NCBI GenBank assembly: GCA_965223415.1
Contig: OZ245002.1
Location: forward strand, 5,088,001-5,152,000
From: Myxococcota bacterium
Lineage (GTDB): Bacteria; Myxococcota_A; UBA9160; UBA6930
Length of the DNA: 64,000 bases
Reading direction: 5' to 3'
The notes beneath the pieces were generated by a model that had not been told where the DNA came from, did not search any database, and saw nothing but the letters and a program-made list of their open reading frames with translations. The translations under genes were made by a program, and so were the position numbers. Below are positions 43,404-57,495 of this stretch, in pieces; the first letter of the stretch is position 1; each line of letters starts with the position of its first letter.

Positions 43404-44585
43404 GTGAGCACCTACCGATGGTTCACGGCGGGCGTCGCCTCCTGGTTCACCGCCTGGGGCATGAACGCCCTGGTCTTCAGCTGGCTCGTGGTGGGCGTCC
43501 TCGAGGCGGAGCCGCGTTGGGTGGGGATCGCCCAGACCTCGACGCTCCTGCCCTCGCTTTTCCTGCTCCTGTTCGGCGGCGCCGTCGCCGACCGGCTCGA
43601 CCCCCGGCGTCTGCTGATCGGTCTGCACCTGGCCGCAGCGCTGCCGATCCTGGCCCTGGCCGGCGTCGTGCAGGTCGGCGCCCTCACCCTGCCCTTGCTG
43701 CTCGGCTACGGTGCGGTGCTCGGCTCCTTCTCCGCCTTCGTGATGCCGAGCCGGGACGCCCTGCTCTCCCGGGTCGCCGGCGGCGACATGATGCGAGCCG
43801 TGACCGGCATGACCGTCTTCCAGTTCGGCGGCCAGGCCCTGGGCACGCTCCTGGCCGGTCGGGCGGAGGCCGTGGGGGTCGTGGCCGTGCTAGTCGCCCA
43901 GGCGATCATCGTGGCCCTGGGCGCCGGCGCCACCGGCTTCCTCACCGAACGTCCACCTCGGACGGATGACGCCCAGGACGGCTCGGCGCTCGCACGGATC
44001 CGCGCCGGCCTCGGCATCGTGGCGCGCACGCCGGAGCTGCGCACGCCGGTGGCGCTGGTGTTCCTGGTGGGCGTCCTCTTCATCGGCCCGTACCTGGTGC
44101 TCTTCCCGCTCCTCGTCCGGGATCGCTACGCCGGCGGCGCCCAGGAGCTGGCCTTCGTGCTCATGACCTTCCCCCTCGGCACGATCCTGGGCTCACTGGT
44201 TCTGCGGGCCCGCGGCGGCATCCGGCGCAAGGGCCGAGCGCTGCTCCTGGCCCTCGCCGCCGGCGCGACCACCCTCGTCGTGATGGGTACCGGCCTCTCC
44301 TTTCCGGGCATGGTGCTCGCCGCCCTCTTCTGGGGGCTCGCCGGATCGGTCTTCATCAACACGAGTCGCACCCTCGTGCAAGAAGCGGCGCCGGCAGAGG
44401 CAAGGGGTCGCGTGCTGGCCGCCTATCAGGTCGGTTTCGTGGGCGGTGGCCCGATCGGGACCCTGCTGGCGGGCATCGTGGCGGAGCGCGTCGGCCCCCT
44501 CGCGACGCTCACGGCAGCGGGCGGTGCGATGCTCGTGTGCGTCCTCGCAGTCGCCGTGTTCAGCGGCGCGCGGGAGATGCAGTAG
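43404..44585 (+). CDS. MFS transporter
   Basis: GAVADRLDPRR motif A; about 12 TM segments. Confidence 0.88.
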   Translation: MSTYRWFTAGVASWFTAWGMNALVFSWLVVGVLEAEPRWVGIAQTSTLLPSLFLLLFGGAVADRLDPRRLLIGLHLAAALPILALAGVVQVGALTLPLLLGYGAVLGSFSAFVMPSRDALLSRVAGGDMMRAVTGMTVFQFGGQALGTLLAGRAEAVGVVAVLVAQAIIVALGAGATGFLTERPPRTDDAQDGSALARIRAGLGIVARTPELRTPVALVFLVGVLFIGPYLVLFPLLVRDRYAGGAQELAFVLMTFPLGTILGSLVLRARGGIRRKGRALLLALAAGATTLVVMGTGLSFPGMVLAALFWGLAGSVFINTSRTLVQEAAPAEARGRVLAAYQVGFVGGGPIGTLLAGIVAERVGPLATLTAAGGAMLVCVLAVAVFSGAREMQ

Positions 44586-46341
44586 GGCCCGCGCTCCAGC
44601 GGCGACCCAGCAGGGCGTCCGGCGCGCGCCGTGCCGGGGCAATCGCCACGGCACGCCCGCCGAGCTCGATGCGCGCCGCGCTGCCGGCGGCGAGGCGCGG
44701 CACCTCCAGGCGGGCGGGTCTCGGATCGTCCCCGAAGACCTCGACGACCAGCCCCTCCAACGGCCGTGCGTCCCGGTTCACGATGCGAAGGGCGCCGCCC
44801 TCCGCCGCCTCGAGCTCGACCCGCGAGCGCTGCGCGACCCAGCGCACCGCTTCGCCCGCCGTCGCCCGCCAGGCGTCCCGGCGCAGATCGTCCCGGAGCA
44901 CCGGGGCCAGGGCCTCGCGGTGGGAGGTCGCGGCCAGGCCCTGTCCCGAGAGCACCAGCAGGTGGAGACCACCCAGGGCACGCATCCGCCGCAGGTCCCG
45001 CTGGGCCTGGCGAGGCGCCACCCGCTGGCGGGCGGTCCGGTCGTGGGCGGCGGCCGCCCGTGAGACCAACGCCATCGGGAGGCCCTCCGCCGAGACCCAG
45101 CGCGGGTAGGCGCGGTCGAAGGCCGGGTCACCGACGACGTAGGCGTAGCCCGCCGTCGCCGCCTCGTGGAGGGTCAGGGCATCGAACTGCTCGCGAGGCA
45201 CGCGCAGGCCCCTGACCGGTCGCGGGTGGAGCCCGCCGATCGCCGCCCGGCTCTCCGAGAGCTTCTGCTGCTGGTGGATGCGTGTGCCGCCGTCGAATAG
45301 GGTGCGCCGGTCGCCCCGGGAGCCGAGCTCTGCGCTCGCGCGCAGGCGGGTCCTCAGGCGCCCCTCGGCGCGGACGACGTCGCTGTAGACGAACACGGTG
45401 GCACGCGGCTCCAGCGCTGCAGCGGCCTCGACCGCGGCCAGCACCTCGTCCTCGTCACCGTGGGTATCGATGCCGACGACGGAGGCGAAGCGCTGCGCCT
45501 CGGGCCACGGCGCGAGCGCGACCACGTCGTCTCCCGCCACCCACTGCAGGGCAAGACTCCGCAGGCGATCCAGCTCGGCGCGAGAGCCCTCCACCGCATG
45601 GGTGGCCGGGAACCCGAACCAGGCGCGGCGGGAGGCGCCCCCGTCGAGCGCCGCTGCGGGCTGCCAGGCGCCGAGCGGGTCCGGCGACGGGCGCAGCTGC
45701 CAGCTGCTCCACCAGAGCACCGGGTCGCCGCTCTCGTGGGTGTAGGCCGGCGAGTCCAGCGGGATCTCCAGCCGGCGTCCCGGATCGAGGGGAGCCGCCG
45801 GCGCGCTGCGTCCGGCCGGGACCACGAACAGAGCCTCGGCGCCGAAGGGACGGGGCGCCGCATCGGCGAGGCCGGCCGCACCGGTGAGGATCACGCCTCC
45901 GCCGGCGGCGGCGAAGCGATCGATCGCCCGGCGCTCCCCCGGTGCCAGACACAGCACCCAGGGAACGACGATCGCGTCGATCGTCCCCGGCCGAGCGGGG
46001 ATGCGTCGGGCGTTGCCCAGCTCGGTCGCGATACCGACGGCCTCCGCCAGCCCGCGCCAGCGCTCGGTCTGGGACCACAGGTCGAAGCCCCGCTCGGTCG
46101 CGCAGGCGATGTTGCTCGCGGGCTGCACGATCCGCACGCGGCGCGCGGGCCCCCTGCGCCAGGGCGGCGCGGTACCCTGCTCGGCGGTGGGAATGGACGC
46201 CACCTCCATCGCCGGGAACAGGTTGCGCAGGGTCCAGAGATAGGCGAGGCCGCCGCTGGCCATCAGCAGCACGAGGCTCGCCACCAGCAGCGCGTAGTAG
46301 AAGGGAATCCGTCCGCGCGGGTCTCCTTCGGTTCGCTCCAC
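44560..46341 (-). CDS. Membrane-anchored protein with GATase-like and degenerate polysaccharide-deacetylase-like domains
   Basis: N-terminal TM. LAPWPEA...VVGID, ATVFV, ELGSRG and GLRVPRE align with a NodB fold but lack the metal-binding His residues. Confidence 0.6.
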   Translation of the reverse strand: MERTEGDPRGRIPFYYALLVASLVLLMASGGLAYLWTLRNLFPAMEVASIPTAEQGTAPPWRRGPARRVRIVQPASNIACATERGFDLWSQTERWRGLAEAVGIATELGNARRIPARPGTIDAIVVPWVLCLAPGERRAIDRFAAAGGGVILTGAAGLADAAPRPFGAEALFVVPAGRSAPAAPLDPGRRLEIPLDSPAYTHESGDPVLWWSSWQLRPSPDPLGAWQPAAALDGGASRRAWFGFPATHAVEGSRAELDRLRSLALQWVAGDDVVALAPWPEAQRFASVVGIDTHGDEDEVLAAVEAAAALEPRATVFVYSDVVRAEGRLRTRLRASAELGSRGDRRTLFDGGTRIHQQQKLSESRAAIGGLHPRPVRGLRVPREQFDALTLHEAATAGYAYVVGDPAFDRAYPRWVSAEGLPMALVSRAAAAHDRTARQRVAPRQAQRDLRRMRALGGLHLLVLSGQGLAATSHREALAPVLRDDLRRDAWRATAGEAVRWVAQRSRVELEAAEGGALRIVNRDARPLEGLVVEVFGDDPRPARLEVPRLAAGSAARIELGGRAVAIAPARRAPDALLGRRWSAGPTASPARR

Positions 46342-46344
46342 GGT

Positions 46345-46572
46345 CTAGGCCTCGGGGTCTCCGCTCGGCTCCTCGACGGACGCGCCGCCGCCCCGCTGAT
46401 AGCGGCGGAACACGCGCGGCGGCGCTTCCTCCTCCGGCGCCACCCGTCCGGCGCGGGCGCGCTTCTGGTCCCGGAGTTTGTAGGCTGCGTAGGAGCCGAA
46501 CGCGAGGATGATCGTGACGATCGTCGTGGCCATGATCACGGTCGACAGGATCGGGATGAGGTCGAACTTCAC
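46345..46572 (-). CDS. Small single-TM protein, possible synthase partner
   Basis: 75 aa with one TM and a basic tail, directly after the GT2 gene. Confidence 0.7.
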   Translation of the reverse strand: MKFDLIPILSTVIMATTIVTIILAFGSYAAYKLRDQKRARAGRVAPEEEAPPRVFRRYQRGGGASVEEPSGDPEA

Positions 46573-46573
46573 G

Positions 46574-47884
46574 TCAGATGCGCCCCTTTCGCTCGAGCTT
46601 TCCCCAACTCATCTGGCGGCCCATCAGCTCCTCCAGCGTGGCCATCACCTTGCACACGTCGATCACGACGATGAAGAAGACCCGATAGTAGATGGCGTAG
46701 AACGCCAGCTTCAGGTCCTCTTCCTCGATCGCCACACAGAAGAGCGCCGCCGCCACGTCGAGGATCGTGAGCTGCGTCCACCAGAAGAACAGCAGCTCCG
46801 TCATGCCGTACTTGACGCCCACGATGACGAAGAAGGCGTTGGCGAAGATGTTCATCGCGGGCCAGATCAGCCCCTCGAACACCATGTACCAGAGGATCAG
46901 GCTGTTGGCGGGCGTGGCCCACGGCCGCCAGAGCAGCCGCGAGTGCTTCTTGATCGCCTGGAGGATTCCCCGCGTCCAGCGGTAGCGCTGCTTGAGCAGG
47001 TCGAGCAGGTCTTCGGGCGCCTCCGTCAGCGCGACGCAGCGCCGCTCGTAGACGACCTTGAAGCCCTCGAGGAGCAGCTTGAGGGTGAGGTCGCAATCTT
47101 CCGCGTAGGTGTCGTGCTCGTAGAGGCCCACATGGAAGAGCGCGGACTTGCGGAACATCCCGATCGGCCCGGGAATGATGTTCACCATGCGAAAGAAGCC
47201 CTGGGCCTTGCGGGCCATGTTCAGGCCTTCGATGTACTCGAGGGCCTGGAGCTTCGAGATCATGTTCGATCGGTTCACCACCTTCACGTTGCCGGCGACG
47301 GCCGCAATGTTCGGATCGAGGAAGTGTTTGACGCCCTCGCGCACCGTGTCCCGCGTGAGCTTCGAGTCGCCGTCCATGCAGAGCACGATCGAACCGCGCG
47401 CGGAGCGGATGCCCTGATTGAGCGCCCGGCTCTTGCCGCCGTTCGGCTTGCGGATCACCCGCACCTCGGCGCCGCCCGCCTGCTTGCCCGCCAGCTGGTT
47501 CGCCTTGCGGTAGGTGTCGTCGGTCGAGCCGTCGTCGATGACGAGGATCTCGTAGTTCGGGTAGTCGAGCTCGAGGAGCGAGCGGATCGAGCTCTGGACG
47601 ACGGCGCCCTCGTTGTAACAGGGCACGATGATCGTGACCATCGGGTACTGCCGCATGTCCGGCAGGGCCTGGTCCTCGAGCTGATCCAGGTAGGAGAACC
47701 ACAAGAGGCCGAGGTAACGGATGACCAGTAGGACGAGGAAGCCGAAGAGCACCACCACCGAGACCTGGACGAAGGCGTCCTCCAGCACGAGGCGCTTGGA
47801 GAGCACCTGGCGGTAGAGCACGACGCTCAGCGTGATCAGAGCGACGGCGAGGACGACCAGGCCCGCGGTGTAGCGATGCTTCAC
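46574..47884 (-). CDS. Processive GT2 glycosyltransferase (PgaC/IcaA-like synthase)
   Basis: DDGSTD, NGGKSRALN, DGD, AED and QRYRW motifs with N- and C-terminal TMs; no PilZ domain seen. Confidence 0.9.
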   Translation of the reverse strand: MKHRYTAGLVVLAVALITLSVVLYRQVLSKRLVLEDAFVQVSVVVLFGFLVLLVIRYLGLLWFSYLDQLEDQALPDMRQYPMVTIIVPCYNEGAVVQSSIRSLLELDYPNYEILVIDDGSTDDTYRKANQLAGKQAGGAEVRVIRKPNGGKSRALNQGIRSARGSIVLCMDGDSKLTRDTVREGVKHFLDPNIAAVAGNVKVVNRSNMISKLQALEYIEGLNMARKAQGFFRMVNIIPGPIGMFRKSALFHVGLYEHDTYAEDCDLTLKLLLEGFKVVYERRCVALTEAPEDLLDLLKQRYRWTRGILQAIKKHSRLLWRPWATPANSLILWYMVFEGLIWPAMNIFANAFFVIVGVKYGMTELLFFWWTQLTILDVAAALFCVAIEEEDLKLAFYAIYYRVFFIVVIDVCKVMATLEELMGRQMSWGKLERKGRI

Positions 47885-49817
47885 GGCGCCACCGGGAACC
47901 GATAGCGAAGGCCCACCTGCACGAAGTCCGACTCGTAGACGAGCCCCGACCGCACGGACTGATAGTGGTCGTAGCGAAGGGAGAAGCGCAGGCGCTCGTT
48001 CAGCTCCCACAGCAGCTCCGGGTTGATGCGCCAGCTGAGGCCGGAGCTCCCATCCGAATGGATGCGGCCGTACTCGCCGGTCAGCACCAGGTAGAACCGG
48101 TCCCAGAGCCGCTTCTTGAGCCGCAGGCCGAGTGCGTAGGTGAGCAGGTCCTGGGGCGAGTAGTAGAGGGGCGAGGTCTCGCTGTAGTCCCCGACGGAGC
48201 CGACGGCGAGCAGGTCGACCTCGAGCGGGCGCTCGACGAGGGTCAGGCCCAGGACGCTCCGCACGGTCCAGAAGCTGGGGGAGTCCGAATAGCGACCGAC
48301 CTCGGCGCGGGTCCAGCTCGTGAAGCGCTCGCCGTCGTACATGTGCACCAGGAAAGCGGTCGAACGCTCCACGCCCTCCAGCCCGCTCTCGATCGAGTGC
48401 ACCTCGGGGAACGCGTCGCCGTGGCGGAGGTCGAGCTGGAGCGCGTGGCGGTAGCCGAGCCAGCGCGTCGCGAAGACCCGCAGGCGCGGTGAGAGCCCGA
48501 CGCCGCCATAGCGGACCGCGCCCAGCTCCCCGCCCCACTCGAAGCGCTCGTCGGCCCGCTCGGAGAAGCCGACGCGGAAACCGTAGGCGTCGACCCGCTC
48601 GCCCGCATGCTCGGCCCGGGGCGTGTCCAGGCGAAGCGACCAGCGCTGGCCCGGTCGGGGCGTGTACAGGCCCTCGCTCTCGGTGGTCCACACCGAGAGG
48701 CCGTCATTGTCCTGGAACCACGAGAAGGCCGGCTCGGCGGAGGGCGAAGCCAGCAGGGCCAGGTGGGCGAGCTGGCGCTTGGCTTCCGCGTGGTCCGGGT
48801 CTTCGGCAAGGATGCCGCGGTACACGTCGTCGGCGAGACGATGGGCGCCGGACCAGGCGTGGACGTTGCCGAGCCCGACTCGGGCGCGGTGGTCGTCGGG
48901 CTGCTCTGCGATCAGCGCCTCGAGCTGGCGGCGGGCCGGACCGTACCGGCCGCGCCAGCTCGTCATCTCCGCCAGCTCGGTCCGCAGCAGGCGGTCTTCG
49001 GGTCGGGCCTCGAGGAGCTCCTGGTAGAGCATCTGGGCCTCGGCGTATCTTGCGCTCCAGGCGTGGAAGCGCGCCAGGTGGAGACGCGCCTCGTCGTCCT
49101 CCGGGTGCTCGCGAAGGTGCCGGCGCAGCAGGCGCCGCGCCTCCGCGTAGTGGCCCTCCTGTCCCAGCCGGATGCCGAGCGTGCGGGGCGAACGCTGATC
49201 GCGTTGCACCGCCTCGAGCTGGGTCCGGGCCCCCTCGTGGTCGGGATGATCGGCGAGCACCGCTTCCAGCTCCCGGGCCGCGTCGTCCAGGGCGCCGTCG
49301 CCATGATAGCCGCGGGCCCGCGCGACCCGGAAGGCGGGCTCGTCGGGGAAGTGCTGGAGGCCGAAGAGCAGCCAGCGGCTGGCCAGGTCCGGCCGCTCGG
49401 CAGCCCGCATCACCTCGACGGTCTCCGCCAGCACCTCGGGCTCGTCCCGGAAGAACGGCGCCGCGAGCACGTAGTGGGAGAGCGCGGTGCCGCCGTCGCC
49501 CAGGTAGTAGTGGGCGCGGCCGAGGGACAGCCGCGCCTCGCCGTCCCCGGGCGCATCGGCGACGACCGCCTGGAGGGTCGGGATCGCGTCGAGCTCCCTG
49601 CCTGCCCAGAGCTGGGTCAGGCCGAGCTCGCGCCGGAGGGTGGCGTCTCCGGGCTGCTCGGCGAGGAGCGTCTCGTACAGCGCGATCGAATCGTCGTAGT
49701 CGCCGGACCAGGCCAGCTCCCGAGCCCGCTCGTGACGCGGCGCCACCTCGGCCTCGGCGCTTCCGGCGGCGGTCGCGAGGAGCAGGAGGGCCAGCAGGAG
49801 GGGGGAGCGGCTCTCAT
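47881..49817 (-). CDS. TPR plus outer-membrane beta-barrel export protein (PgaA/PelB/BcsC-like); ATG out of frame at a C6 tract
   Basis: Signal-like LLLALLLLATAAGSAEA, TPRs with the ARxxAW motif and barrel end VGLRYRF. ATG 49817 is in a different frame from the body. Confidence 0.75.
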
Positions 49818-52126
49818 GCTTCCCGGCCGCGGAAGACGCGGCCCTCCTCCACCCGGGCCACCACCCGTGGCGGGCTCTCGACCGTCTCCACCCAGAGGAT
49901 GCAGGCGCCGCTCCGGGCACGGAAGCCTGCGGGGGTCTCCTCGGACCCGCTCTGGCGCCGGTAGCGGTGGGCGTCGATGGTCGCGGCGCGCAGGCCGTCG
50001 GCCCCGACGCTGATCTCGTGGCTCGCACCGTCGATGGGTGACGTGACGAGGGTCTGCTCACCGGCCAGGGCGTGATAGACCGCTTCGATCAGCGGGTACT
50101 TCTCCACGGGCTCGCCGGGTCGCTCGTCGACGTCCTCTTCGATGAGCTGCGAGCTCTCCTGGAAGAGCCGCTCGACGTAGGGCGGCTCGATGGCATCGTC
50201 GGCCAGGCGATCGGGCTGCAGGGTGAGGAGACGGAAGAGGGCCTTCGGCTTCACCGTCTGCTCGCCGAGGAACGCCTCGGCCGCCCCGGCCATCTCCGTG
50301 TGCACCCGGCGCACCACGGCGTGGGCGCCCTCGCCGTCCGCGTCGACGAGCACGGCGACCAGCCGCCGTTCGTCCAGCTCCGCCAGCGCGTCCTCGGCGC
50401 GGATGCTGCGGGCGAGCACGTCGCGGAACTGGGCCACGAAGCCGGCACTGGCGCCGTCGACGAAGCGGAACTCGTAGCCCACCAGGCTCACCGGAACGCC
50501 CGCGTCCTCGGCCCAGCTCCGGACGCGCTCGATCGCCGGCTCGAGCTCGTCGCGCGCCAGCGTTCGCGGGAGGAGCATGCGCGGCGCCGCCTCGACGTCG
50601 ATCGCCGGCCATTCCTGGGAGCCCGGCGGCCGCGCGCGCAGCAGCGACACCATCGTCGCCCGCAGGCGCCGCTCGTCGATCGGCTTCGGAAGGGCCGCGT
50701 CGGCACCTGCGGCGAGGGCCCGGGGCAGCTCGCCCGGCCCGGCGTGGGGCGAGCACAGGAGCACGATCGGCACCGTCACGCGGAGCTCGCGCAGGATGCG
50801 GCAGAGCCCGATGCCGTTCAGGCGCGGCATGCGCGCGCCCATCAGCACCAGATCCGGCTCGGAGACGGCGGCGAGACGCAGGCCGGCGACCCCGTCGGCG
50901 GCCTCGAGAACGTCGATCTTCGAGCCGCAGGTGCGTGCCACCTCCCGGCGCGCCTCCTCGTCGGCCTCGATCACGAGCACCGTCGCCGAGAGCCCCGGGC
51001 GCCGGTTGGGCGCCACCTCGACGGGCGGCGGGGCACTCGGCTGCACCCGCGGCGACGCGACGCCGGCCTTCCGGCGGCGCCGGGCGAGCTGCTCGAGCTC
51101 GTCGAGAGTATCGTCGTCCAGCAGCTCGAGGTCATCGGCCCCCGAGCTCGACCCCGCCGCCGGACGCGGCGCGACGGGTGCGTGCGGCTCGGCGACGGCT
51201 GCCGCCTCGGCGGCCCGCGGCACGGCCTCGACGACCGGCTCCACCGCAGCCCGCGGCACGGCCTCGGCGACCGGCTCCGCCGCAGCCCGCGGCACGGCCT
51301 CGACGACCGGCTCTGGAGCGACGACCGGATCCGGGAGCAGCGTGGGCGCCAGCTCGGCGTGCGGGGCCGGCGTCTCCTCCGTCGCGGCGGGCGCCGCCGC
51401 TCGCTTGAAGCGCGCGAAGCCGCGACGCCCGGGGGCGACCGCGGTCGGTCCGCCGCCCGAGATCCCGGCCTCGCCGATCGTGAAGTCGAAGCGGCTCTTC
51501 TTCAGCTGCACGTTGCGCATCTTGTAGACGAGCAGCGAGTGGTCCGGCCCCTCGTCGCCCTCGGCGCCGCGCTGCAGCTCGAACAGACCCCAGCACACCT
51601 CCGAGAAGACCCGCAGCACGAAGGGCTGCTGCATCACCCCGCTGTCGCTCAGCATGAGCGGGCTCCAGCCCATCTCCTCGAAGCGGGCGGTCAGCATGCG
51701 CAGCTCGCTGCGCAGGATCGTCTCGTCGTCCATCGACGAGAAGAACGGGTCCACCGGGTCGAGCACGATACGCCGGACGCCCAGCCCCTCCACCTCGGCC
51801 TGCAGCTCCACCAGCACGGCCTCGGGGCCGGAACGGGCGACGATCTCCCGGAAGCCCTCGTCATACTCGAGCAGGATGAGCTGCTCGTTGTCGACGTACT
51901 GGCTGAAGGGGAAGCCGAACCGCTCGGCCTGCTGGATCAGGTCGTCGGCCTTCTCGCGACACACGTAGAGGGCGCTCTCGCCGGCCTGCAGGCCGGCGTG
52001 GGCGTACTGCAGGCCGAAGATCGACTTGCCGGTGCCGCTCGCGCCGAACGCCATGTAGGGTTTCGCGCGAAAGAAACCGTCTGCCCCGGCGTCGAGGAAA
52101 TCGACGCCGGTGGGGATCCCCTCCAT
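49814..52126 (-). CDS. KaiC/RecA-like ATPase - linker - pseudo-receiver - degenerate GGDEF protein
   Basis: IPTGVDFLD, Walker A GASGTGKS, RRIVLDP and VYKMR. REC has PDLVLMG (Asp replaced by Gly). RAED is followed 5 aa later by DERRL. Confidence 0.85.
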   Translation of the reverse strand: MEGIPTGVDFLDAGADGFFRAKPYMAFGASGTGKSIFGLQYAHAGLQAGESALYVCREKADDLIQQAERFGFPFSQYVDNEQLILLEYDEGFREIVARSGPEAVLVELQAEVEGLGVRRIVLDPVDPFFSSMDDETILRSELRMLTARFEEMGWSPLMLSDSGVMQQPFVLRVFSEVCWGLFELQRGAEGDEGPDHSLLVYKMRNVQLKKSRFDFTIGEAGISGGGPTAVAPGRRGFARFKRAAAPAATEETPAPHAELAPTLLPDPVVAPEPVVEAVPRAAAEPVAEAVPRAAVEPVVEAVPRAAEAAAVAEPHAPVAPRPAAGSSSGADDLELLDDDTLDELEQLARRRRKAGVASPRVQPSAPPPVEVAPNRRPGLSATVLVIEADEEARREVARTCGSKIDVLEAADGVAGLRLAAVSEPDLVLMGARMPRLNGIGLCRILRELRVTVPIVLLCSPHAGPGELPRALAAGADAALPKPIDERRLRATMVSLLRARPPGSQEWPAIDVEAAPRMLLPRTLARDELEPAIERVRSWAEDAGVPVSLVGYEFRFVDGASAGFVAQFRDVLARSIRAEDALAELDERRLVAVLVDADGEGAHAVVRRVHTEMAGAAEAFLGEQTVKPKALFRLLTLQPDRLADDAIEPPYVERLFQESSQLIEEDVDERPGEPVEKYPLIEAVYHALAGEQTLVTSPIDGASHEISVGADGLRAATIDAHRYRRQSGSEETPAGFRARSGACILWVETVESPPRVVARVEEGRVFRGREA
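51213..51313. repeat. In-frame 36-bp tandem repeat, about 2.8 copies (EPV[VA]EAVPRAA[AV])
   Basis: GCCCGCGGCACGGCCTCG(A/G)CGACCGGCTC starting at 51213, 51249 and 51285. Confidence 0.9.
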
Positions 52127-52227
52127 CCGTTCCCATCCTCTCTCGCTCTCTCGCGAGGGTTTCGCTGTTGAATCGGTGCTTTCACCGGGGGGCTTGAGGA
52201 GCGGACGCCTGGGGTCGAAGGGGAGGA

Positions 52228-53268
52228 ATGCCCCGCACGAGCGAGCCGCCGAAGGTCGTCCCCTGGGGGGTCCGGTTCGCCCTGGCCCTCCTTCTCGCCG
52301 CTCCGGACGCCTCCGTCGCCGAGGGCCTGCGGGTGGGCATCGGGGACCGGGTCGAGTTCCACCGCGCCGGCCGGGTCGTCCATGTGCGGGACGAGGCGCG
52401 GGCCCTGGGCCTGGCCACGGACTACCAGCAGATCTGGCTGCCCCGCGGATGGCAGGACGCCTGGCTCGACCCGGCGGCGCTCAGCGCCCTCGCTCACACC
52501 GGGACCACGCCGGTGGTGGCCCACTGGTTCTTCGGCGACGCGATCAGTCGCGAGCGGGTCGAGGCGGAGCGCCACGCGTGGCACCGGAGCCTGGCCCGCA
52601 TGGCGCGGCGCATCGCGATCGGCGCGCCGGTGCTGGTGCTGCTCGAGCCCGAGTTCAACAACGCCCCGCCGCCGGGAGAGACCGCCGTCACCGACTGGCC
52701 CGGCTTCGCGCGGGAGGTGCGCGAAGCCGTGCGCATCCTCCGCCACTTCGCGCCGGAGGTCCGCGTCGGCCTGTGCGCCGGGGACTTCTCACCGACCCGG
52801 AACCTGGAGCGCGCGCTCGGCGGCGTCGCCGACGAGCTCGACTTCCTCGCCTTCCAGGAGATGCGCGCCAGCACGCGCCACGGGCGCGACGCCCTCGACC
52901 TGGGGACCGCCGCCGTCTCCTACGCCCGCTACCTGAAGGAAGCGTTCGGGCGGCCGCTGTTCCTGGGCTACGTGGCCGTCTCGTCCCACGGCGGCTGGGA
53001 GGACGCCCAGCGCGAGGCCCTCGCCTCCCTCGTTCGCGAACGCGAAGCCCTGACCGGGGCCGGTGTCTTCGGCCTCGTCTACTTCCAGCTCCGCGACGAT
53101 CCGGACCACACGGGCTGGTTCGGCGACGCCGAGCGCCACTTCGGCGTGCTCACCGCCGAGGGCGCGCCGAAGCCGGCGCTCGAGGCGCTGCGCGCGCTGG
53201 GGACGAGCCCGGCCGCCCCGCCTGCCGCACGAGACGGATCCCCTGGATCCGCTCCCACACCTCGCTGA
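52228..53268 (+). CDS. Secreted TIM-barrel glycoside hydrolase-like protein
   Basis: Signal peptide, VLLEPEFN, LDFLAFQ, GLVYFQLRD and ERHFGV...GAPKPA motifs. Confidence 0.65.
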   Translation: MPRTSEPPKVVPWGVRFALALLLAAPDASVAEGLRVGIGDRVEFHRAGRVVHVRDEARALGLATDYQQIWLPRGWQDAWLDPAALSALAHTGTTPVVAHWFFGDAISRERVEAERHAWHRSLARMARRIAIGAPVLVLLEPEFNNAPPPGETAVTDWPGFAREVREAVRILRHFAPEVRVGLCAGDFSPTRNLERALGGVADELDFLAFQEMRASTRHGRDALDLGTAAVSYARYLKEAFGRPLFLGYVAVSSHGGWEDAQREALASLVREREALTGAGVFGLVYFQLRDDPDHTGWFGDAERHFGVLTAEGAPKPALEALRALGTSPAAPPAARDGSPGSAPTPR

Positions 53269-54451
53269 CCGGCAGCACCGTCACGCCGCTCCTCTCGATC
53301 TCGACCAGGGCCTTCTCGAAGTCGTCGACGGCGTACTCGATCTCGATCCGGGGATCGCCGTTCAGCACGTGGAACATCAGGATCGCCCATTCGCCGTGCT
53401 CCTTCGCCCGCCGCGCGATGGCGCCGATCTCCGCGGGCGTCGTCGTGTCCAGCACGTTGACGGCGCGGAGCAGGTGACGGTCCGCGACCGGGATCGTCTC
53501 GGGACCGGCGCCGGCGACGCGGGCCGTCGCGAAGTGCTTGCGTACGATCGGCCGCACCACCCGCGGCTCCTGTCGGCCGAGGGGATAGGCGAGGTGGCCG
53601 TCAGCGCGGAAGCCCCGCCCGCGCAGGTAACCCTGCACGTCCTGGATCTCCCGCTCGAGCTCGAGCTCGCTCATCTCCGTGAACGGGGTCGCGTGGTGGG
53701 CGGCCACGTCCCAGCCGTAGCGGCCGCCAAGGCCTTCGAGCTGCTTCGCGGTGACGAAGCCCTCCTCGCCCACCTGCGCCGGCATGACGTAGGCCGTGCC
53801 CCGGAAGCCGTGGGCGTGCATGGCCGGCGCGGCGATCGTGGCGTGGTCGTCGGTGCCGTCGTCGAAGGTGAACGAGAGGAAGCCCTCAGAGGCCCGTTGC
53901 ACGGCGGTCAAGCCCGTCCACGCCACCTCGACCCCGCCCTGGCCCCGATCGGCGAAGTAGAGGCCGACGGCGCGCACGTTCTGGAGGTCCACCGCGCCTT
54001 CGACCCGGGCAGTCCCGAGGCTGAAGCTCACCGGGGTCCAGGTGCCGGGCTGGACGACGTTGAACGGCGCATCCGAGAAGAGCGGAATGGGGAAGGCCGC
54101 CGTGCCCTCGTCGAAGCGGCTCGAGGTGAGCCGCAGCTCCAGGCCCGACAGGTGGGCGAGGTTGCTCACCCGGATCCAGGTGCGCAGGGTGTGACCCGTG
54201 AGGTCGGCGCCCGGCGTGATCGGAGCCGCCGAGGCGAGGAAGGCGGGACGGCCGTCACCGCGGGTGCGGCACGCCACCCAGGGCTGGGCCGGCTCGCCCC
54301 CTGCCTGGCAACGGGCCGTGCCCCACTTCTCCACGATGCGCGCAGCGCCGGGATCCTGCACCACCCACTCGCCCACCCCGCGCCCGGTGGCGGCGGAGGC
54401 GGCCAGCAGGGCGACGAGGGCGACGAGTCCGTGAATCGCTCTGGAGCCCAT
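53150..54451 (-). CDS. Secreted polysaccharide deacetylase (CE4/NodB) with an N-terminal beta-sandwich
   Basis: FTFDDG, WDVAAHH, LAYPLG and ILMFH motifs. Confidence 0.85.
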   Translation of the reverse strand: MGSRAIHGLVALVALLAASAATGRGVGEWVVQDPGAARIVEKWGTARCQAGGEPAQPWVACRTRGDGRPAFLASAAPITPGADLTGHTLRTWIRVSNLAHLSGLELRLTSSRFDEGTAAFPIPLFSDAPFNVVQPGTWTPVSFSLGTARVEGAVDLQNVRAVGLYFADRGQGGVEVAWTGLTAVQRASEGFLSFTFDDGTDDHATIAAPAMHAHGFRGTAYVMPAQVGEEGFVTAKQLEGLGGRYGWDVAAHHATPFTEMSELELEREIQDVQGYLRGRGFRADGHLAYPLGRQEPRVVRPIVRKHFATARVAGAGPETIPVADRHLLRAVNVLDTTTPAEIGAIARRAKEHGEWAILMFHVLNGDPRIEIEYAVDDFEKALVEIERSGVTVLPVSEVWERIQGIRLVRQAGRPGSSPARAAPRAPASARPRR

Positions 54452-54533
54452 GGGTCTCCTCCCGGTGCGAGATCCGACAGCTCATCGACCTCCGCGGCGT
54501 CTCCCTGAAGGCGGTCGCGGTAGACTGCTGCCG

Positions 54534-56237
54534 GTGCGCGCCCTCCCCTCCCGCCGGGTCTCCTTCGTCTTGCTTCTCCTCCTGCTCCTCGCGGCCACAG
54601 CCTGCGGGAGGCGGACGGTCTTCGTGGGTGCGCCGGTCCTCACTGTGGGCCCGGACAACCGGATCGCGGAGGCCTTCGGCATCGACGGCGACCGCATCGG
54701 GGCGGTCGGGAGCGAGACCGAGGTGCGGGCCTGGGCCGGCCCCGCGGCGCAGGTGGTGGAGCTCTCGGGGGGCGCCATCGTGCCGGGCTTCATCGACGCC
54801 CACGGCCACTTCCCCGGCGACGGCGTGTGGGCCGGCGTCACCGATCTGAACCCGCCGCCGATCGGCGACCTGGAGACCCTCGAGGAGCTCGTGGCACGCA
54901 TGCGCGCGCGGGCGGAGACGACGCCGGCCGGGGAGTGGGTGACCGGCATGGGCTACGACGACACGCTCCTCGCCGAGCGCCGCCACCCCACCCGCGTCGA
55001 TCTCGACCGGGTGTCCACCGAGCACCCGGTGGCGATCTTGCACATCTCCGGCCATCTGGCCTCGGTGAACAGCCGCGCCCTCCGGGACCTCGGCTGGGAT
55101 GCGAGCACGCCGGACCCGGAAGGCGGCGTGATCCGCCGGGATCCGGAGACGGGCGAGCCCGACGGCGTGCTGGAAGAGAACGCCATGGAGTCGCTGCAGG
55201 CGGAGCTCCTGAGCCCGGGCCTGGCCGACGGGCTGGCGATGGTGCGGCTGGCCGTGGAGCGCGCCGTCGCAGAGGGCGTGACGACGGCCCAGGTCGGCTA
55301 CACGCCGACCTCCCAGCTGCGCCTCTTTCCGTGGCTCTCGCGCCTCGGGATCGTTCCGATCCGGCTCGTGCTGTGGCCCAGCATGGAAGCCCTCGATGAG
55401 CTGCTGGACGGCGGCGACCCCTACACCACCTACGACCCGGAGTGGGTGCGCATCGGCGCCGTGAAGCTCGTGGCCGACGGCTCGATCCAGGGCTACACGG
55501 GCTACCTGGCCGAGCCCTACCACGTGCCGCCCGGCGACGATCCGGAGTTCCGCGGCTATCCGCGCATCGCCCGAGACGAGCTGATCCGCAGGGCCCGGCG
55601 CTACCACGCGGCGGGCTGGCAGCTCGCCATCCACGGCAACGGCGACGCCTCGATCGACGACATCCTCGACGCCTTCGAGGCCGCCTTCGCCGAGACGCCC
55701 GCCGACGACCCGCGACCCATCGTGATCCACGCCCAGATGACCCGCGACGACCAGCTCGACCGCATGGCCGCGCTCGGCGTGATCCCCTCCTTCTTCAGCC
55801 TGCACACCTACTACTGGGGCGACCGCCACCGCGATCTGTTCATGGGTCCCGAGCGCGCGGCGCGCATGAGCCCCGCGAAGAGCGCCCTCGAGAAGGGCGT
55901 GCGCTTCACGATCCACTGCGACGCGCCGGTCGTGCCGATGGAGCCGCTGCGACTCATGTGGGCGGCGGTGAACCGCAAGAGCAGCAGCGGCAACGACATC
56001 GGGCCGAGCGAGCGTATCACGCCGATGCAGGCGCTGCGCGCCACCACCCTCGACGCGGCTTACCAGTACCGCGACGAGGACCTGAAGGGATCACTGGAGG
56101 TCGGCAAGCTCGCCGACTTCGTGATCCTCTCCGCGTCGCCCCTCGACGATCCCACCCGCATCGACGAGATCCGGGTGCTCGAGACCTGGGTCGGCGGCGA
56201 GCGGGTATACCGGGCGGGAGACACGGCGAGTGAGTGA
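54534..56237 (+). CDS. Amidohydrolase-3 (YtcJ-like), probable lipoprotein
   Basis: PGFIDAHGH, KLVADGS, IHGNGD and GSLEVGKLADF motifs; LAATAC signal. Confidence 0.9.
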   Translation: MRALPSRRVSFVLLLLLLLAATACGRRTVFVGAPVLTVGPDNRIAEAFGIDGDRIGAVGSETEVRAWAGPAAQVVELSGGAIVPGFIDAHGHFPGDGVWAGVTDLNPPPIGDLETLEELVARMRARAETTPAGEWVTGMGYDDTLLAERRHPTRVDLDRVSTEHPVAILHISGHLASVNSRALRDLGWDASTPDPEGGVIRRDPETGEPDGVLEENAMESLQAELLSPGLADGLAMVRLAVERAVAEGVTTAQVGYTPTSQLRLFPWLSRLGIVPIRLVLWPSMEALDELLDGGDPYTTYDPEWVRIGAVKLVADGSIQGYTGYLAEPYHVPPGDDPEFRGYPRIARDELIRRARRYHAAGWQLAIHGNGDASIDDILDAFEAAFAETPADDPRPIVIHAQMTRDDQLDRMAALGVIPSFFSLHTYYWGDRHRDLFMGPERAARMSPAKSALEKGVRFTIHCDAPVVPMEPLRLMWAAVNRKSSSGNDIGPSERITPMQALRATTLDAAYQYRDEDLKGSLEVGKLADFVILSASPLDDPTRIDEIRVLETWVGGERVYRAGDTASE

Positions 56238-57495
56238 AGCCCGCGACCGCACGGCGAGCTGGGTGCTCGCCGTGCTCCTCGTCACCTACACCTTCAACTA
56301 CCTCGATCGCTACCTGCTCACGATCCTGGTCCAGCCGATCAAGGAGGAGCTGGGCGTCTCGGACACCGTGATGGGCTTCCTGATCGGGCCGGCCTTCGCC
56401 CTCTTCTACACCGGCCTCGGCGTCCCGATCGCCCGACTCGCCGACCGCACCAACCGGCGGAACGTGATCGCCGCCGGCTTCGTCCTGTGGAGCGCCTTCA
56501 CCGCCTTGTCGGGCGCCGCGCGCAGCTGGGTGCAGCTCGCCCTGGCGCGGGTCGCCGTGGGCGTGGGCGAGGCGGCCGGTGCGGCGCCCTCCCACTCGCT
56601 GATCTCGGACACCTTCCCCGCCGAGCGGCGCGCCGGCGCCCTCTCCATCTTCCAGATGGGGGTCTACCTGGGCCAGATCCTCGGGCTCGCGGTCGGCGGC
56701 CTGCTCGTGGCGCCCCTCGGCTGGCGCTGGACCTTCGTCGTGGTGGGCCTGCCCGGCCTCTTGTTCGCTGCGCTCCTGCGCTTCACCATCGACGAGCCAC
56801 CGCGCGGGCGCTTCGACCCGGTCGACACGGGCGCGCCGCCGCCGCCGTTCACGGACGTGTTGAAGCACCTCTGGGCCATGCCGACCTTCCGCTGGCTCGC
56901 CATCGGCACCGGCCTCGCGTCCTTCGCCGGCACCGGCTACGGCTTCTGGATCCCGACCCTCTTTCTGCGGGTCCACGACATGAGCTTCGCCGAGATCGGC
57001 ACCAGCTTCGGATTGATCAGTGGCCTCAGTGCGCTCACCGGCACCTGGATCGCCGGCCGACTGGGCGTCCGCCTGGGTGCGCGGGATCCGCGCTGGCTGC
57101 TGCTCCTGGCGAGCCTGGCCGTCGCGGTCTCGCTGCCCTTCCTGTGCGCCGTGAGTCTCTGGCCCACGCCGTGGATCGCGATCTCCTTCGCGATTCCCGC
57201 CGGCCTGGCCGGCGCCGGCTGGGCGCCGCTCACCTACACGGTGGTGCAGAACCTCGTGCCACCGGCGATGCGCTCGGTGGCGGCGTCGATCCTGATCTTC
57301 TTCATCACCTTCCTCGGCATGGGCCTCGGTCCCCAGGCCGTGGGCCTGCTGAGCGACGCCCTCGCCGCCAGCCAGGGCGACCAGGCCCTGCGCTACGCCC
57401 TCGTGCTGGTGCTCGGGACGAGCGGCGTGGGCGCGGCGTGCATCGCGGTGGCGGCACGCCACCTCCCGCGCGATCTCGCAAGGGCCGCGCCGTGA
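56230..57495 (+). CDS. Spinster-like MFS transporter
   Basis: NYLDR, ARLADRTNRR and VGVGEA motifs. Confidence 0.9.
   Translation: MSEARDRTASWVLAVLLVTYTFNYLDRYLLTILVQPIKEELGVSDTVMGFLIGPAFALFYTGLGVPIARLADRTNRRNVIAAGFVLWSAFTALSGAARSWVQLALARVAVGVGEAAGAAPSHSLISDTFPAERRAGALSIFQMGVYLGQILGLAVGGLLVAPLGWRWTFVVVGLPGLLFAALLRFTIDEPPRGRFDPVDTGAPPPPFTDVLKHLWAMPTFRWLAIGTGLASFAGTGYGFWIPTLFLRVHDMSFAEIGTSFGLISGLSALTGTWIAGRLGVRLGARDPRWLLLLASLAVAVSLPFLCAVSLWPTPWIAISFAIPAGLAGAGWAPLTYTVVQNLVPPAMRSVAASILIFFITFLGMGLGPQAVGLLSDALAASQGDQALRYALVLVLGTSGVGAACIAVAARHLPRDLARAAP

Follow-up and report, generated by a model that had tools for sequence, protein, structure and literature searches.

Does a compact gene cluster that combines a polysaccharide synthase, a putative outer-membrane exporter and a head protein resembling the cellulose regulator BcsE belong to one of the described exopolysaccharide systems, or does it represent a family of its own? 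The question is raised by five co-oriented genes, designated here R, T, G, S and D, in a 64,000-nucleotide stretch of a Myxococcota genome (assembly GCA_965223415.1, contig OZ245002.1, positions 5,088,001 to 5,152,000); this whole stretch is referred to as the window, and coordinates below are counted from its first letter. A preceding reading of the sequence alone (hereafter, the sequence-only reading) had proposed an ATP- and cyclic di-GMP (c-di-GMP)-gated system making a partly deacetylated hexosamine polymer, an interpretation that is partly supported by our analysis. On balance, we favor a view of R-T-G-S-D as an undescribed family of synthase-dependent secretion systems, the product of which is probably an N-acetylhexosamine polymer and the activity of which is likely switched by c-di-GMP via R; partial deacetylation of the product may be suggested by enzyme motifs.

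A five-gene operon conserved across phyla

The tight packing on the minus strand noted in the sequence-only reading is real: the genes follow each other in R-T-G-S-D order with intergenic gaps of -4, -4, +1 and +3 bases, and all seven genes that it had listed (these five and two neighbors, H and C, considered below) are found at the positions it gave. The operon genes, with the evidence used for each, are:

49814..52126, minus strand: R, head protein of 770 amino acids (aa); Pfam, 32-orthologue alignment, AlphaFold model, Foldseek, HH comparison with BcsE
47881..49817, minus strand: T, 645 aa, signal peptide, tetratricopeptide repeats (TPR) and a predicted outer-membrane beta-barrel; TPR matches, weak OMP_b-brl match, barrel profile
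46574..47884, minus strand: G, processive family 2 glycosyltransferase (GT2) synthase of 436 aa, GTG start, five predicted transmembrane helices; Pfam, NCBIfam, motifs, trees
46345..46572, minus strand: S, one-helix protein of 75 aa; hidden Markov model (HMM), alignment, hydropathy
44560..46341, minus strand: D, 593 aa, N-terminal transmembrane anchor, GH42M-like and CE4 (PuuE/PgdA type) domains and a C-terminal extension; Pfam, alignment, profile

A GT2 scan of genome contigs yielded 80 loci, five of them with 78–89% identity, 74 with 51–59% (labelled mostly Ignavibacteria or Bacteroidetes) and one, from a betaproteobacterium, with 44%. Among the 74, all of which were fetched, 39 Ignavibacteria-labelled loci are fully flanked, and an ATPase head, T, S and D are each present in 39/39. 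Within the phylum of the window, 21 of 301 genomes have G; besides the window genome, these are 11 of 57 from the same class and 9 of 243 from beyond it. The head-T-G-S-D order is kept, with small variations, in the window's class and in other classes, and an ATPase-type head stands beside the GT2 gene in 15/15 further loci of the phylum. By HMM, S follows G in 85 of 88 GT2 loci, and D homologues are found in 78 loci. A neighborhood survey, recommended along with the sequence-only reading, thus finds the gene set to be syntenic across phyla, from these loci to the betaproteobacterial genome G301. A protein database holds 488 D homologues, some of them named Azonexus, Methylotenera and Comamonadaceae, and D-like clusters in a protein atlas (Gemmatimonadota, Pseudomonadota, Ignavibacteriota, Latescibacterota and Bacteroidota) are taken as a lead only; D was not found in a plasmid search.

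The 39 fully flanked Ignavibacteria loci share recurrent neighbors, including an upstream gene for a GH9 enzyme closest to endoglucanases CelD and Cel9M (34 loci), an FN3 lipoprotein (35), an SGNH protein (10) and a PAS-kinase (39), counts that may reflect shared kinship and do not by themselves prove membership in the system. In loci L044-L117, the ATPase gene is often duplicated or truncated, and T is sometimes present twice; D is followed by genes for a PAS-kinase-REC protein and either an FN3 lipoprotein or another D-like protein.

G as a processive synthase outside the PgaC/IcaA clade

G carries the motifs DDGS, MDGD, QALEY, IIPGP, AED, QRYRW and SWG and, with its D,D,D,QxxRW signature and five transmembrane segments, has the features of a processive glycosyltransferase integrated into the membrane; the protein ends at residue 436 with no match to PilZ. 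Among the 88 operon GT2s, QxxRW is present in all and QxxEY in at least 87. The sequence-only reading had called G a PgaC/IcaA-type enzyme, of which the processive, PgaC-like character stands and the family assignment does not: the best NCBIfam match is PgaC_IcaA, yet G scores 219.5 bits against a cut-off of 422.3 and falls into a separate clade. In a GT2 tree of 45 rows (the operon group comprising 12 rows plus 8 unplaced representatives), the operon GT2s grouped together with support of 99/93, the PgaC/IcaA enzymes with 100/97, and long fusion-type GT2s formed a third group, with BcsA far from G. Forcing the operon GT2s together with PgaC/IcaA was rejected by the approximately unbiased (AU) test (p = 0.03), which agrees with the placement outside PgaC/IcaA that the recommended phylogenetic check was to probe. 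A quick tree of 112 rows agrees with the 45-row tree. The latter omitted YaiP and 12 near-duplicate operon rows, and neither tree included NfrB or partial sequences; YdaM and PssC were absent from the GT2 tree.

As for the sugar donor, G finds its best PDB match (E 2e-20) in the GT2 of entry 6yv7, presumably an archaeal mannosyltransferase, and hyaluronan synthases are among the top PDB matches. Its nearest plasmid matches (~35% identity) are long fusion GT2s, presumably bearing GH18-CE4 domains. By inspection, G has counterparts, including the signature Pro and the SWG loop, of all nine motifs listed for the chitin synthase PsChs1 in PMC9556331. At the position of the Pro loop, BcsA has FFCGS and PgaC/IcaA have SGV. 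The long fusion GT2s share the nine motifs too, and G reads EDC or EDA, not the EDR of chitin synthases. Taken together, the sequence motifs of G favor an N-acetylhexosamine donor without fixing the linkage.

R as a predicted c-di-GMP receptor with a variable ATPase site

R begins with a KaiC ATPase domain (residues 4-223; Pfam, E 7e-31), followed by a low-complexity linker and a degenerate REC domain (residues 383-491; Pfam, E 1e-15), the phospho-acceptor Asp of which is replaced by Gly in the window protein. Pfam reports neither a GGDEF match nor, at E 0.1, a match to the BcsE family (PF10995). The AlphaFold model of residues 378-770 (predicted local distance difference test, pLDDT, 89.8) displays REC, a GGDEF-type fold and, behind it, an extra domain of ~95 aa absent from the sequence-only reading; the top Foldseek matches of this model are the REC-GGDEF proteins WspR, PleD and DgcR (~300 columns, E 2e-13 to 2e-10).

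The degenerate GGDEF domain holds an intact RxxD I-site, R576-A-E-D579 (RAED), which precedes the dead A-site DERRL by five residues. The same spacing separates the I-site of YdaK from its dead A-site SDERI, and this I-site is needed for polymer production, according to PMC5422440. Both RxxD residues are invariant in 32/32 aligned R orthologues, and the motif is kept in 23/23 REC-bearing R-type proteins, a census composed of the window R, three close homologues and 19 proteins from operon loci (the fragmented L166 and the REC-less ATPase-TPR-barrel fusions of genome G004 being left out and the Ignavibacteria heads counted separately). The Ignavibacteria heads have no REC, and RxxD is found at the matching place in 0/51 of them (site located in 40); GGDEF matches number 21 in the window genome and 18 in G301, with one weak match each in four Ignavibacteria chromosomes. 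The I-site thus tracks with c-di-GMP signaling, and c-di-GMP gating via the RxxD site of R, a prediction from sequence, is likely, which favors one half of the dual gating proposed in the sequence-only reading.

The other half, ATP gating, does not hold in general. The single ATPase domain of R has a Walker A motif (GASGTGKS), Glu58, Walker B Asp123 and a KxR finger, with K34, S35 and D123 conserved in 32/32 orthologues, E58 in 31/32 and R204 in 29/32; E58 and R204 are presumed, by analogy with KaiC/RecA, to be the catalytic Glu and the finger Arg. ATP hydrolysis by R is a prediction based on these retained residues. Within the census of 23, intact Walker A (GxxGxGKS) is restricted to the 4 window-type proteins, while 12 read GRT/GRS and 7 are broken; the Ignavibacteria heads read GRT in 41/51. 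As far as such motifs tell, ATP turnover in the head protein cannot be a requirement of the system in general. R does not fit a clock KaiC, with tandem ATPase domains, as it has a single such domain and scores 73.3 bits against a cut-off of 408.

Several other observations concern R itself. The linker (window 51200-51310) contains three near-repeats of a Pro/Ala/Glu/Val-rich unit of ~12 aa, and its length differs among orthologues. The C-terminal domain (residues ~675-770, window 49814-50150) is a conserved alpha/beta domain ending in ARxExGRVFRG; it is present in window-type R and its standalone orthologues, not in the shorter class-level heads. A metagenome scan with the R alignment returned five loci, four of them standalone R genes (L119-L122) and one (L123) a short weak match that was dropped. 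Together with L032, these standalone ATPase-REC-dead GGDEF genes hint at a role outside polysaccharide synthesis; their neighbors are presumably FAD/Fe-S oxidase-like or lipoprotein-like genes (L119-L122) and a second ATPase-like gene, fusA and mglAB-like genes (L032).

Probable relationship of R to BcsE

The domain order of R (KaiC/RecA-like domain, dead REC, dead GGDEF with RxxD) is that of BcsE, as described in PMC7439463 and PMC8892547; in the former, the N-terminal domain of BcsE is modelled after KaiC and considered to be catalytically dead. The comparison drawn in the sequence-only reading was confined to architecture and can now be carried further. In betaproteobacterial genome G301, two such operons, located on different contigs, have heads scoring above the PF10995 cut-off in the slot of R; the head preceding G-D scores 170 bits, the one preceding T-G-S-D 131 bits. 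Moreover, in HH comparison with six cellulose BcsE sequences, 182 N-terminal columns of the R profile are aligned (E 2.6e-4, probability 42%), and a second, colinear and non-significant block (probability 0.2%) places RAED on RTGD, the c-di-GMP-binding motif of BcsE; for the shorter class-level heads, 407 columns are aligned (E 8e-4, probability 25%, the other class-level figure being 75%). Statistically weak as these sequence alignments are, R is likely a remote, ATP-binding BcsE homologue.

Beyond G301, no BcsE-headed form was found in other sampled genomes of its order (GT2 in 0/150, D in 0/400), and in the other 5 PF10995 genomes among 201, cellulose genes stand beside the match (bcsG 5/5, bcsA 3/5). 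No full-length open reading frame (ORF) was listed for the GT2 of the BcsE-T-G-S-D operon on contig C103 of G301 (L126, L170). The neighbors of this operon are presumably AlgF, AlgX, MBOAT, GH18 and BcsQ genes. A third D homologue on C103 precedes genes which are presumably BcsD-, BcsR-, BcsQ- and BcsA-like, so that D would also occur in a cellulose-type cluster. Further BcsE-family genes of G301 (L124, L125) lie away from any synthase, one of them directly before a gene for a large Ig/cadherin-repeat protein.

T as an intact candidate exporter

In the assembly, the overlapping ATG of T is out of frame with the signal peptide, and there is no in-frame start. Short-read contigs of 3/3 covering runs contain an extra base in the homopolymer behind 49799 (four runs of one study were checked, one of them without cover, and two represent a single sample, possibly the source of this DNA). 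With this base, T is an intact protein of 645 aa starting from the ATG at 49817, the same length as in two relatives, and T reads through in frame in 5/5 close relatives. The frame break is therefore an assembly error, the same runs and relatives ruling out a real frameshift or pseudogene.

The combination of a TPR scaffold with a predicted outer-membrane barrel in one operon protein is supported by sequence: Pfam detects TPR and, weakly, OMP_b-brl (E 0.078), and the barrel profile aligns with the C-termini of two BcsC proteins (E 3.5e-5 and 2.6e-4) and with PgaA (E 1.1e-3), as compared with E 0.2-0.5 for shuffled sequences. These weak alignments to BcsC and PgaA center on a conserved YYSP (a YYxP motif in PgaA), and by HMM the barrel forms a family of its own. 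Alignments to YaiO and NfrA, tried as possible relatives, were not significant, and a profile search of the barrel against PDB gave 0 matches. In G004 (L163:6761-9925 and L164:3372-7277), an ATPase domain with intact GKT is joined to TPR and barrel in one ORF, a topologically odd arrangement that may reflect either genuine fusion or faulty assembly; the ORF that comes next in L163 begins with an S-like helix.

S, D and the accessory genes C and H

S consists of one conserved N-terminal transmembrane helix and a basic tail, a topology that by hydropathy is like that of BcsF and unlike the two-helix PgaD and IcaD. No significant sequence match was obtained to BcsF, PgaD or IcaD (HH probability ≤5% against single PgaD and IcaD sequences) and none at all in Pfam or NCBIfam.

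D was described in the sequence-only reading as a degenerate deacetylase, which is confirmed: its metal-binding His residues and catalytic motifs are lost in the window's clade as well as in Ignavibacteria and kept in betaproteobacterial homologues, the only ones with intact active-site motifs. Its nearest structures, by profile against PDB, are N-deacetylases of the PuuE/PgdA type; PgaB, PelA and Agd3 are not among the 60 PDB matches.

Two further genes lie beyond R, the second overlapping the end of the first by 119 bases:

52228..53268, plus strand: H, accessory clan GH-A TIM-barrel protein of 346 aa; 81-row alignment, model, Foldseek
53150..54451, minus strand: C, accessory CE4 deacetylase of 433 aa with an N-terminal hydrophobic segment; Pfam (E 8e-5), weak HfsH match, alignment

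Both are considered accessory, since C adjoins the operon in just 10 other loci and H in 6. C, previously taken for an intact CE4 enzyme, deviates in part from the canonical pattern: it has TFDDG, LAYP and LMFH, and motif 2 is without the second His of HxxxH in the window protein and in 7/7 aligned homologues. A profile search of C against PDB gave nothing meaningful. C occurs in lineages with a dead or shortened D and may accordingly have taken its place.

The H model (pLDDT 95.1) is a clan GH-A TIM barrel with PslG, GH53, GH39 and GH26 as top Foldseek matches, PslG being nearest (E 6.5e-11, TM 0.67); by PDB profile search, the best match had only E 0.17. As compared with retaining hydrolases of this clan, the strand-4 acid/base Glu is present and invariant in an 81-row alignment, whereas the nucleophile position of strand 7, assigned by sequence spacing and secondary structure, not by superposition, is Tyr in 81/81 in place of Glu; an invariant Glu (QEMR) follows strand 6. 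Judging from these residues, H may act as a binder or else hydrolyse by an unusual mechanism, which, speculatively, could involve a Tyr/Glu nucleophile couple or substrate-assisted catalysis. Its family (P0346-P0451) comprises 106 proteins, just one of them with a precomputed Pfam match. The flanks of the cluster (window 43404-44585 and 54450-57495) encode major facilitator superfamily transporters and an amidohydrolase-3 protein, with no sign of membership in the system seen.

Comparison with described systems

The operon shares with E. coli-type (type II) cellulose systems a head in which a KaiC/RecA-like domain is combined with dead REC and GGDEF domains, a small membrane protein with a single helix and a TPR-barrel exporter. 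It differs in that G lacks PilZ and FFCGS, and R, with no PF10995 match, has retained catalytic ATPase residues missing from BcsE; no match to BcsB, BcsG or BcsZ was found in the window operon, nor any Pfam match to BcsB among the seven proteins. With the poly-N-acetylglucosamine (PNAG) systems PgaABCD and IcaADBC, it has in common a similarly sized processive GT2 with QxxEY, QxxRW and a C-terminal Trp motif, a small downstream membrane protein, a TPR-porin and CE4. The differences include scores below family cut-offs, a separate GT2 clade, an S unlike PgaD/IcaD, the combination in D of a GH42M-like domain with CE4, whereas PgaB has a CE4 + GH153 layout, and the ATPase-REC-GGDEF head, which PNAG operons lack; neither D nor C matched the PgaB or IcaB models of NCBIfam. 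The Pel system (PelA-G) comprises a degenerate-GGDEF c-di-GMP receptor, a TPR-porin, a periplasmic deacetylase and the GT4 enzyme PelF; the first three are shared, whereas G is a GT2 enzyme. The sequence-only reading was thus right to describe a mosaic matching none of the PNAG, Pel and cellulose systems exactly.

YdaJKLMN of Bacillus and PssABCDE of Listeria are systems of monoderm bacteria with a membrane-bound receptor and without TPR-porin or KaiC domain. What they would share with R-T-G-S-D is a GT2 activated via a distinct receptor in which RxxD precedes the dead A-site of a degenerate GGDEF domain by five residues, and the Listeria product is a beta-1,4 N-acetylmannosamine chain (both as given in PMC5422440). 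The group of chitin synthase, NodC and hyaluronan synthase, together with bacterial GH18-CE4-GT2 fusions, has in common with G, as far as inspection tells, counterparts of the nine PsChs1 motifs. It differs from our system by the EDC/EDA of G, the porin-containing operon and a clade apart from the fusions and NodC (the NodC branch being long and its place unsure).

Proposed model and alternative explanations

In the model that we favor, G would polymerize and translocate an N-acetylhexosamine chain, which T would guide and export via its TPR scaffold and outer-membrane barrel, and R would switch synthesis on by binding c-di-GMP at RxxD. S may tether R or G at the membrane, a role proposed because BcsF recruits BcsE there (PMC7439463). 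D would be a membrane-anchored periplasmic partner that acts on the chain as a deacetylase in betaproteobacteria, whose D has kept the His residues, and as a scaffold in the window, where C would supply the deacetylase and H might trim or bind the polymer. The ATPase domain of R would serve as an oligomerization module, with ATP turnover possible only in the window's clade and not needed system-wide.

A number of observations weigh against this model. Two of the three main groups compared have a degenerate D, and the metal site of C is atypical. The AU result is marginal, with long branches flagged. The HH probabilities linking R and the class-level heads to BcsE are low, the BcsE-headed operon is seen in one genome only, and BcsE is absent among the rows listed by three fold searches, all dominated by REC; with the listings filled in this way, BcsE and the C-terminal domain were barely tested in these searches with R fragments. 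None of five close R orthologues (L032, L119-L122) has a T, G, S or D match in its vicinity, and one of their genomes, G063 (94% complete), has R and no GT2 match at 1e-85; window-type R thus exists also outside the operon and may not be dedicated to it. Finally, the GH9 and SGNH neighbors (34/39 and 10/39) and the resemblance of H to hydrolases of neutral glycans would fit a neutral glycan.

This last point leads to an alternative, in our view quite unlikely, in which the same machine makes a neutral beta-glycan of the glucan or mannan type, with CE4 and SGNH proteins acting on O-acetyl groups and D serving as a BcsB-like co-polymerase. It accounts for the CelD/Cel9M-like GH9, for the fold neighbors of H (PslG, galactanases, lichenase), for BcsE being a cellulose regulator and for the top PDB match of G, the presumed mannosyltransferase 6yv7. 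However, G has neither HAKAGN nor FFCGS of BcsA and, like chitin synthase, contains QxxEY, PG and WG, the nearest structures of D are N-deacetylases, and the GH9 synteny may be a matter of kinship, since the PAS-kinase gene is just as conserved (39/39). A divergent PNAG system (beta-1,6-linked N-acetylglucosamine), with S as the PgaD/IcaD equivalent and D or C as that of PgaB/IcaB, appears distinctly improbable: the best NCBIfam match of G, the match of T to the PgaA model, its weak barrel alignment to PgaA at YYxP and the small membrane gene after the synthase, as in pgaCD and icaAD, all point that way, but this variant fails every sequence test, with scores far under the cut-offs (G as above; T 54.7 of 366.65 bits on the PgaA model), the separate clade (AU p = 0.03), a one-helix S with no significant PgaD/IcaD match and no PgaB among the 60 PDB matches of the D profile.

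We give still less credence to T-G-S-D being the secretion machine and window-type R a general ATP/c-di-GMP signaling protein that replaced the usual head without directly controlling the synthase. The five standalone orthologues, with the same extra C-terminal domain as R, would be expected in such a case, as would the two operons of genome G068, one headed by window-type R and the other by a shorter class-level head, and the Ignavibacteria head without REC and RxxD. Against it, the R stop overlaps the T start in the window and in 5/5 close relatives, and an ATPase-type head is present in 39/39 Ignavibacteria and 15/15 further phylum loci, so that the head slot itself is conserved. A bolder version of the favored model, rather unlikely as it stands, has the family secreting a beta-1,4 chitin- or chitosan-like polymer under c-di-GMP control, with R as a surviving ATP-hydrolysing, ring-forming form of the ancestor of cellulose BcsE; if true, the operons would display the stages of decay, from intact Walker A via K-to-R and a missing motif to Pfam BcsE.

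Significance

A full-text literature search, judged from listings and the beginnings of abstracts, revealed no published description of the R-T-G-S-D operon, and the examined passages of PMC7112194 and PMC7710045 contain nothing on such a system. R-T-G-S-D is apparently an undescribed, new family within a known kind of synthase-dependent secretion, conserved across phyla. As few synthase-dependent polysaccharide systems have been characterized, it would add a family present in Ignavibacteria, in Myxococcota- and Deltaproteobacteria-labelled relatives and in some betaproteobacteria, where D homologues named Azonexus, Methylotenera and Comamonadaceae indicate that cultured relatives may exist for genetics. 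It would also show BcsE-family proteins outside cellulose operons, and the version with an intact ATPase site makes the role of the dead N-terminal domain of BcsE testable. Should the product prove to be chitin- or chitosan-like, it would represent a secreted bacterial aminopolysaccharide of biotechnological interest.

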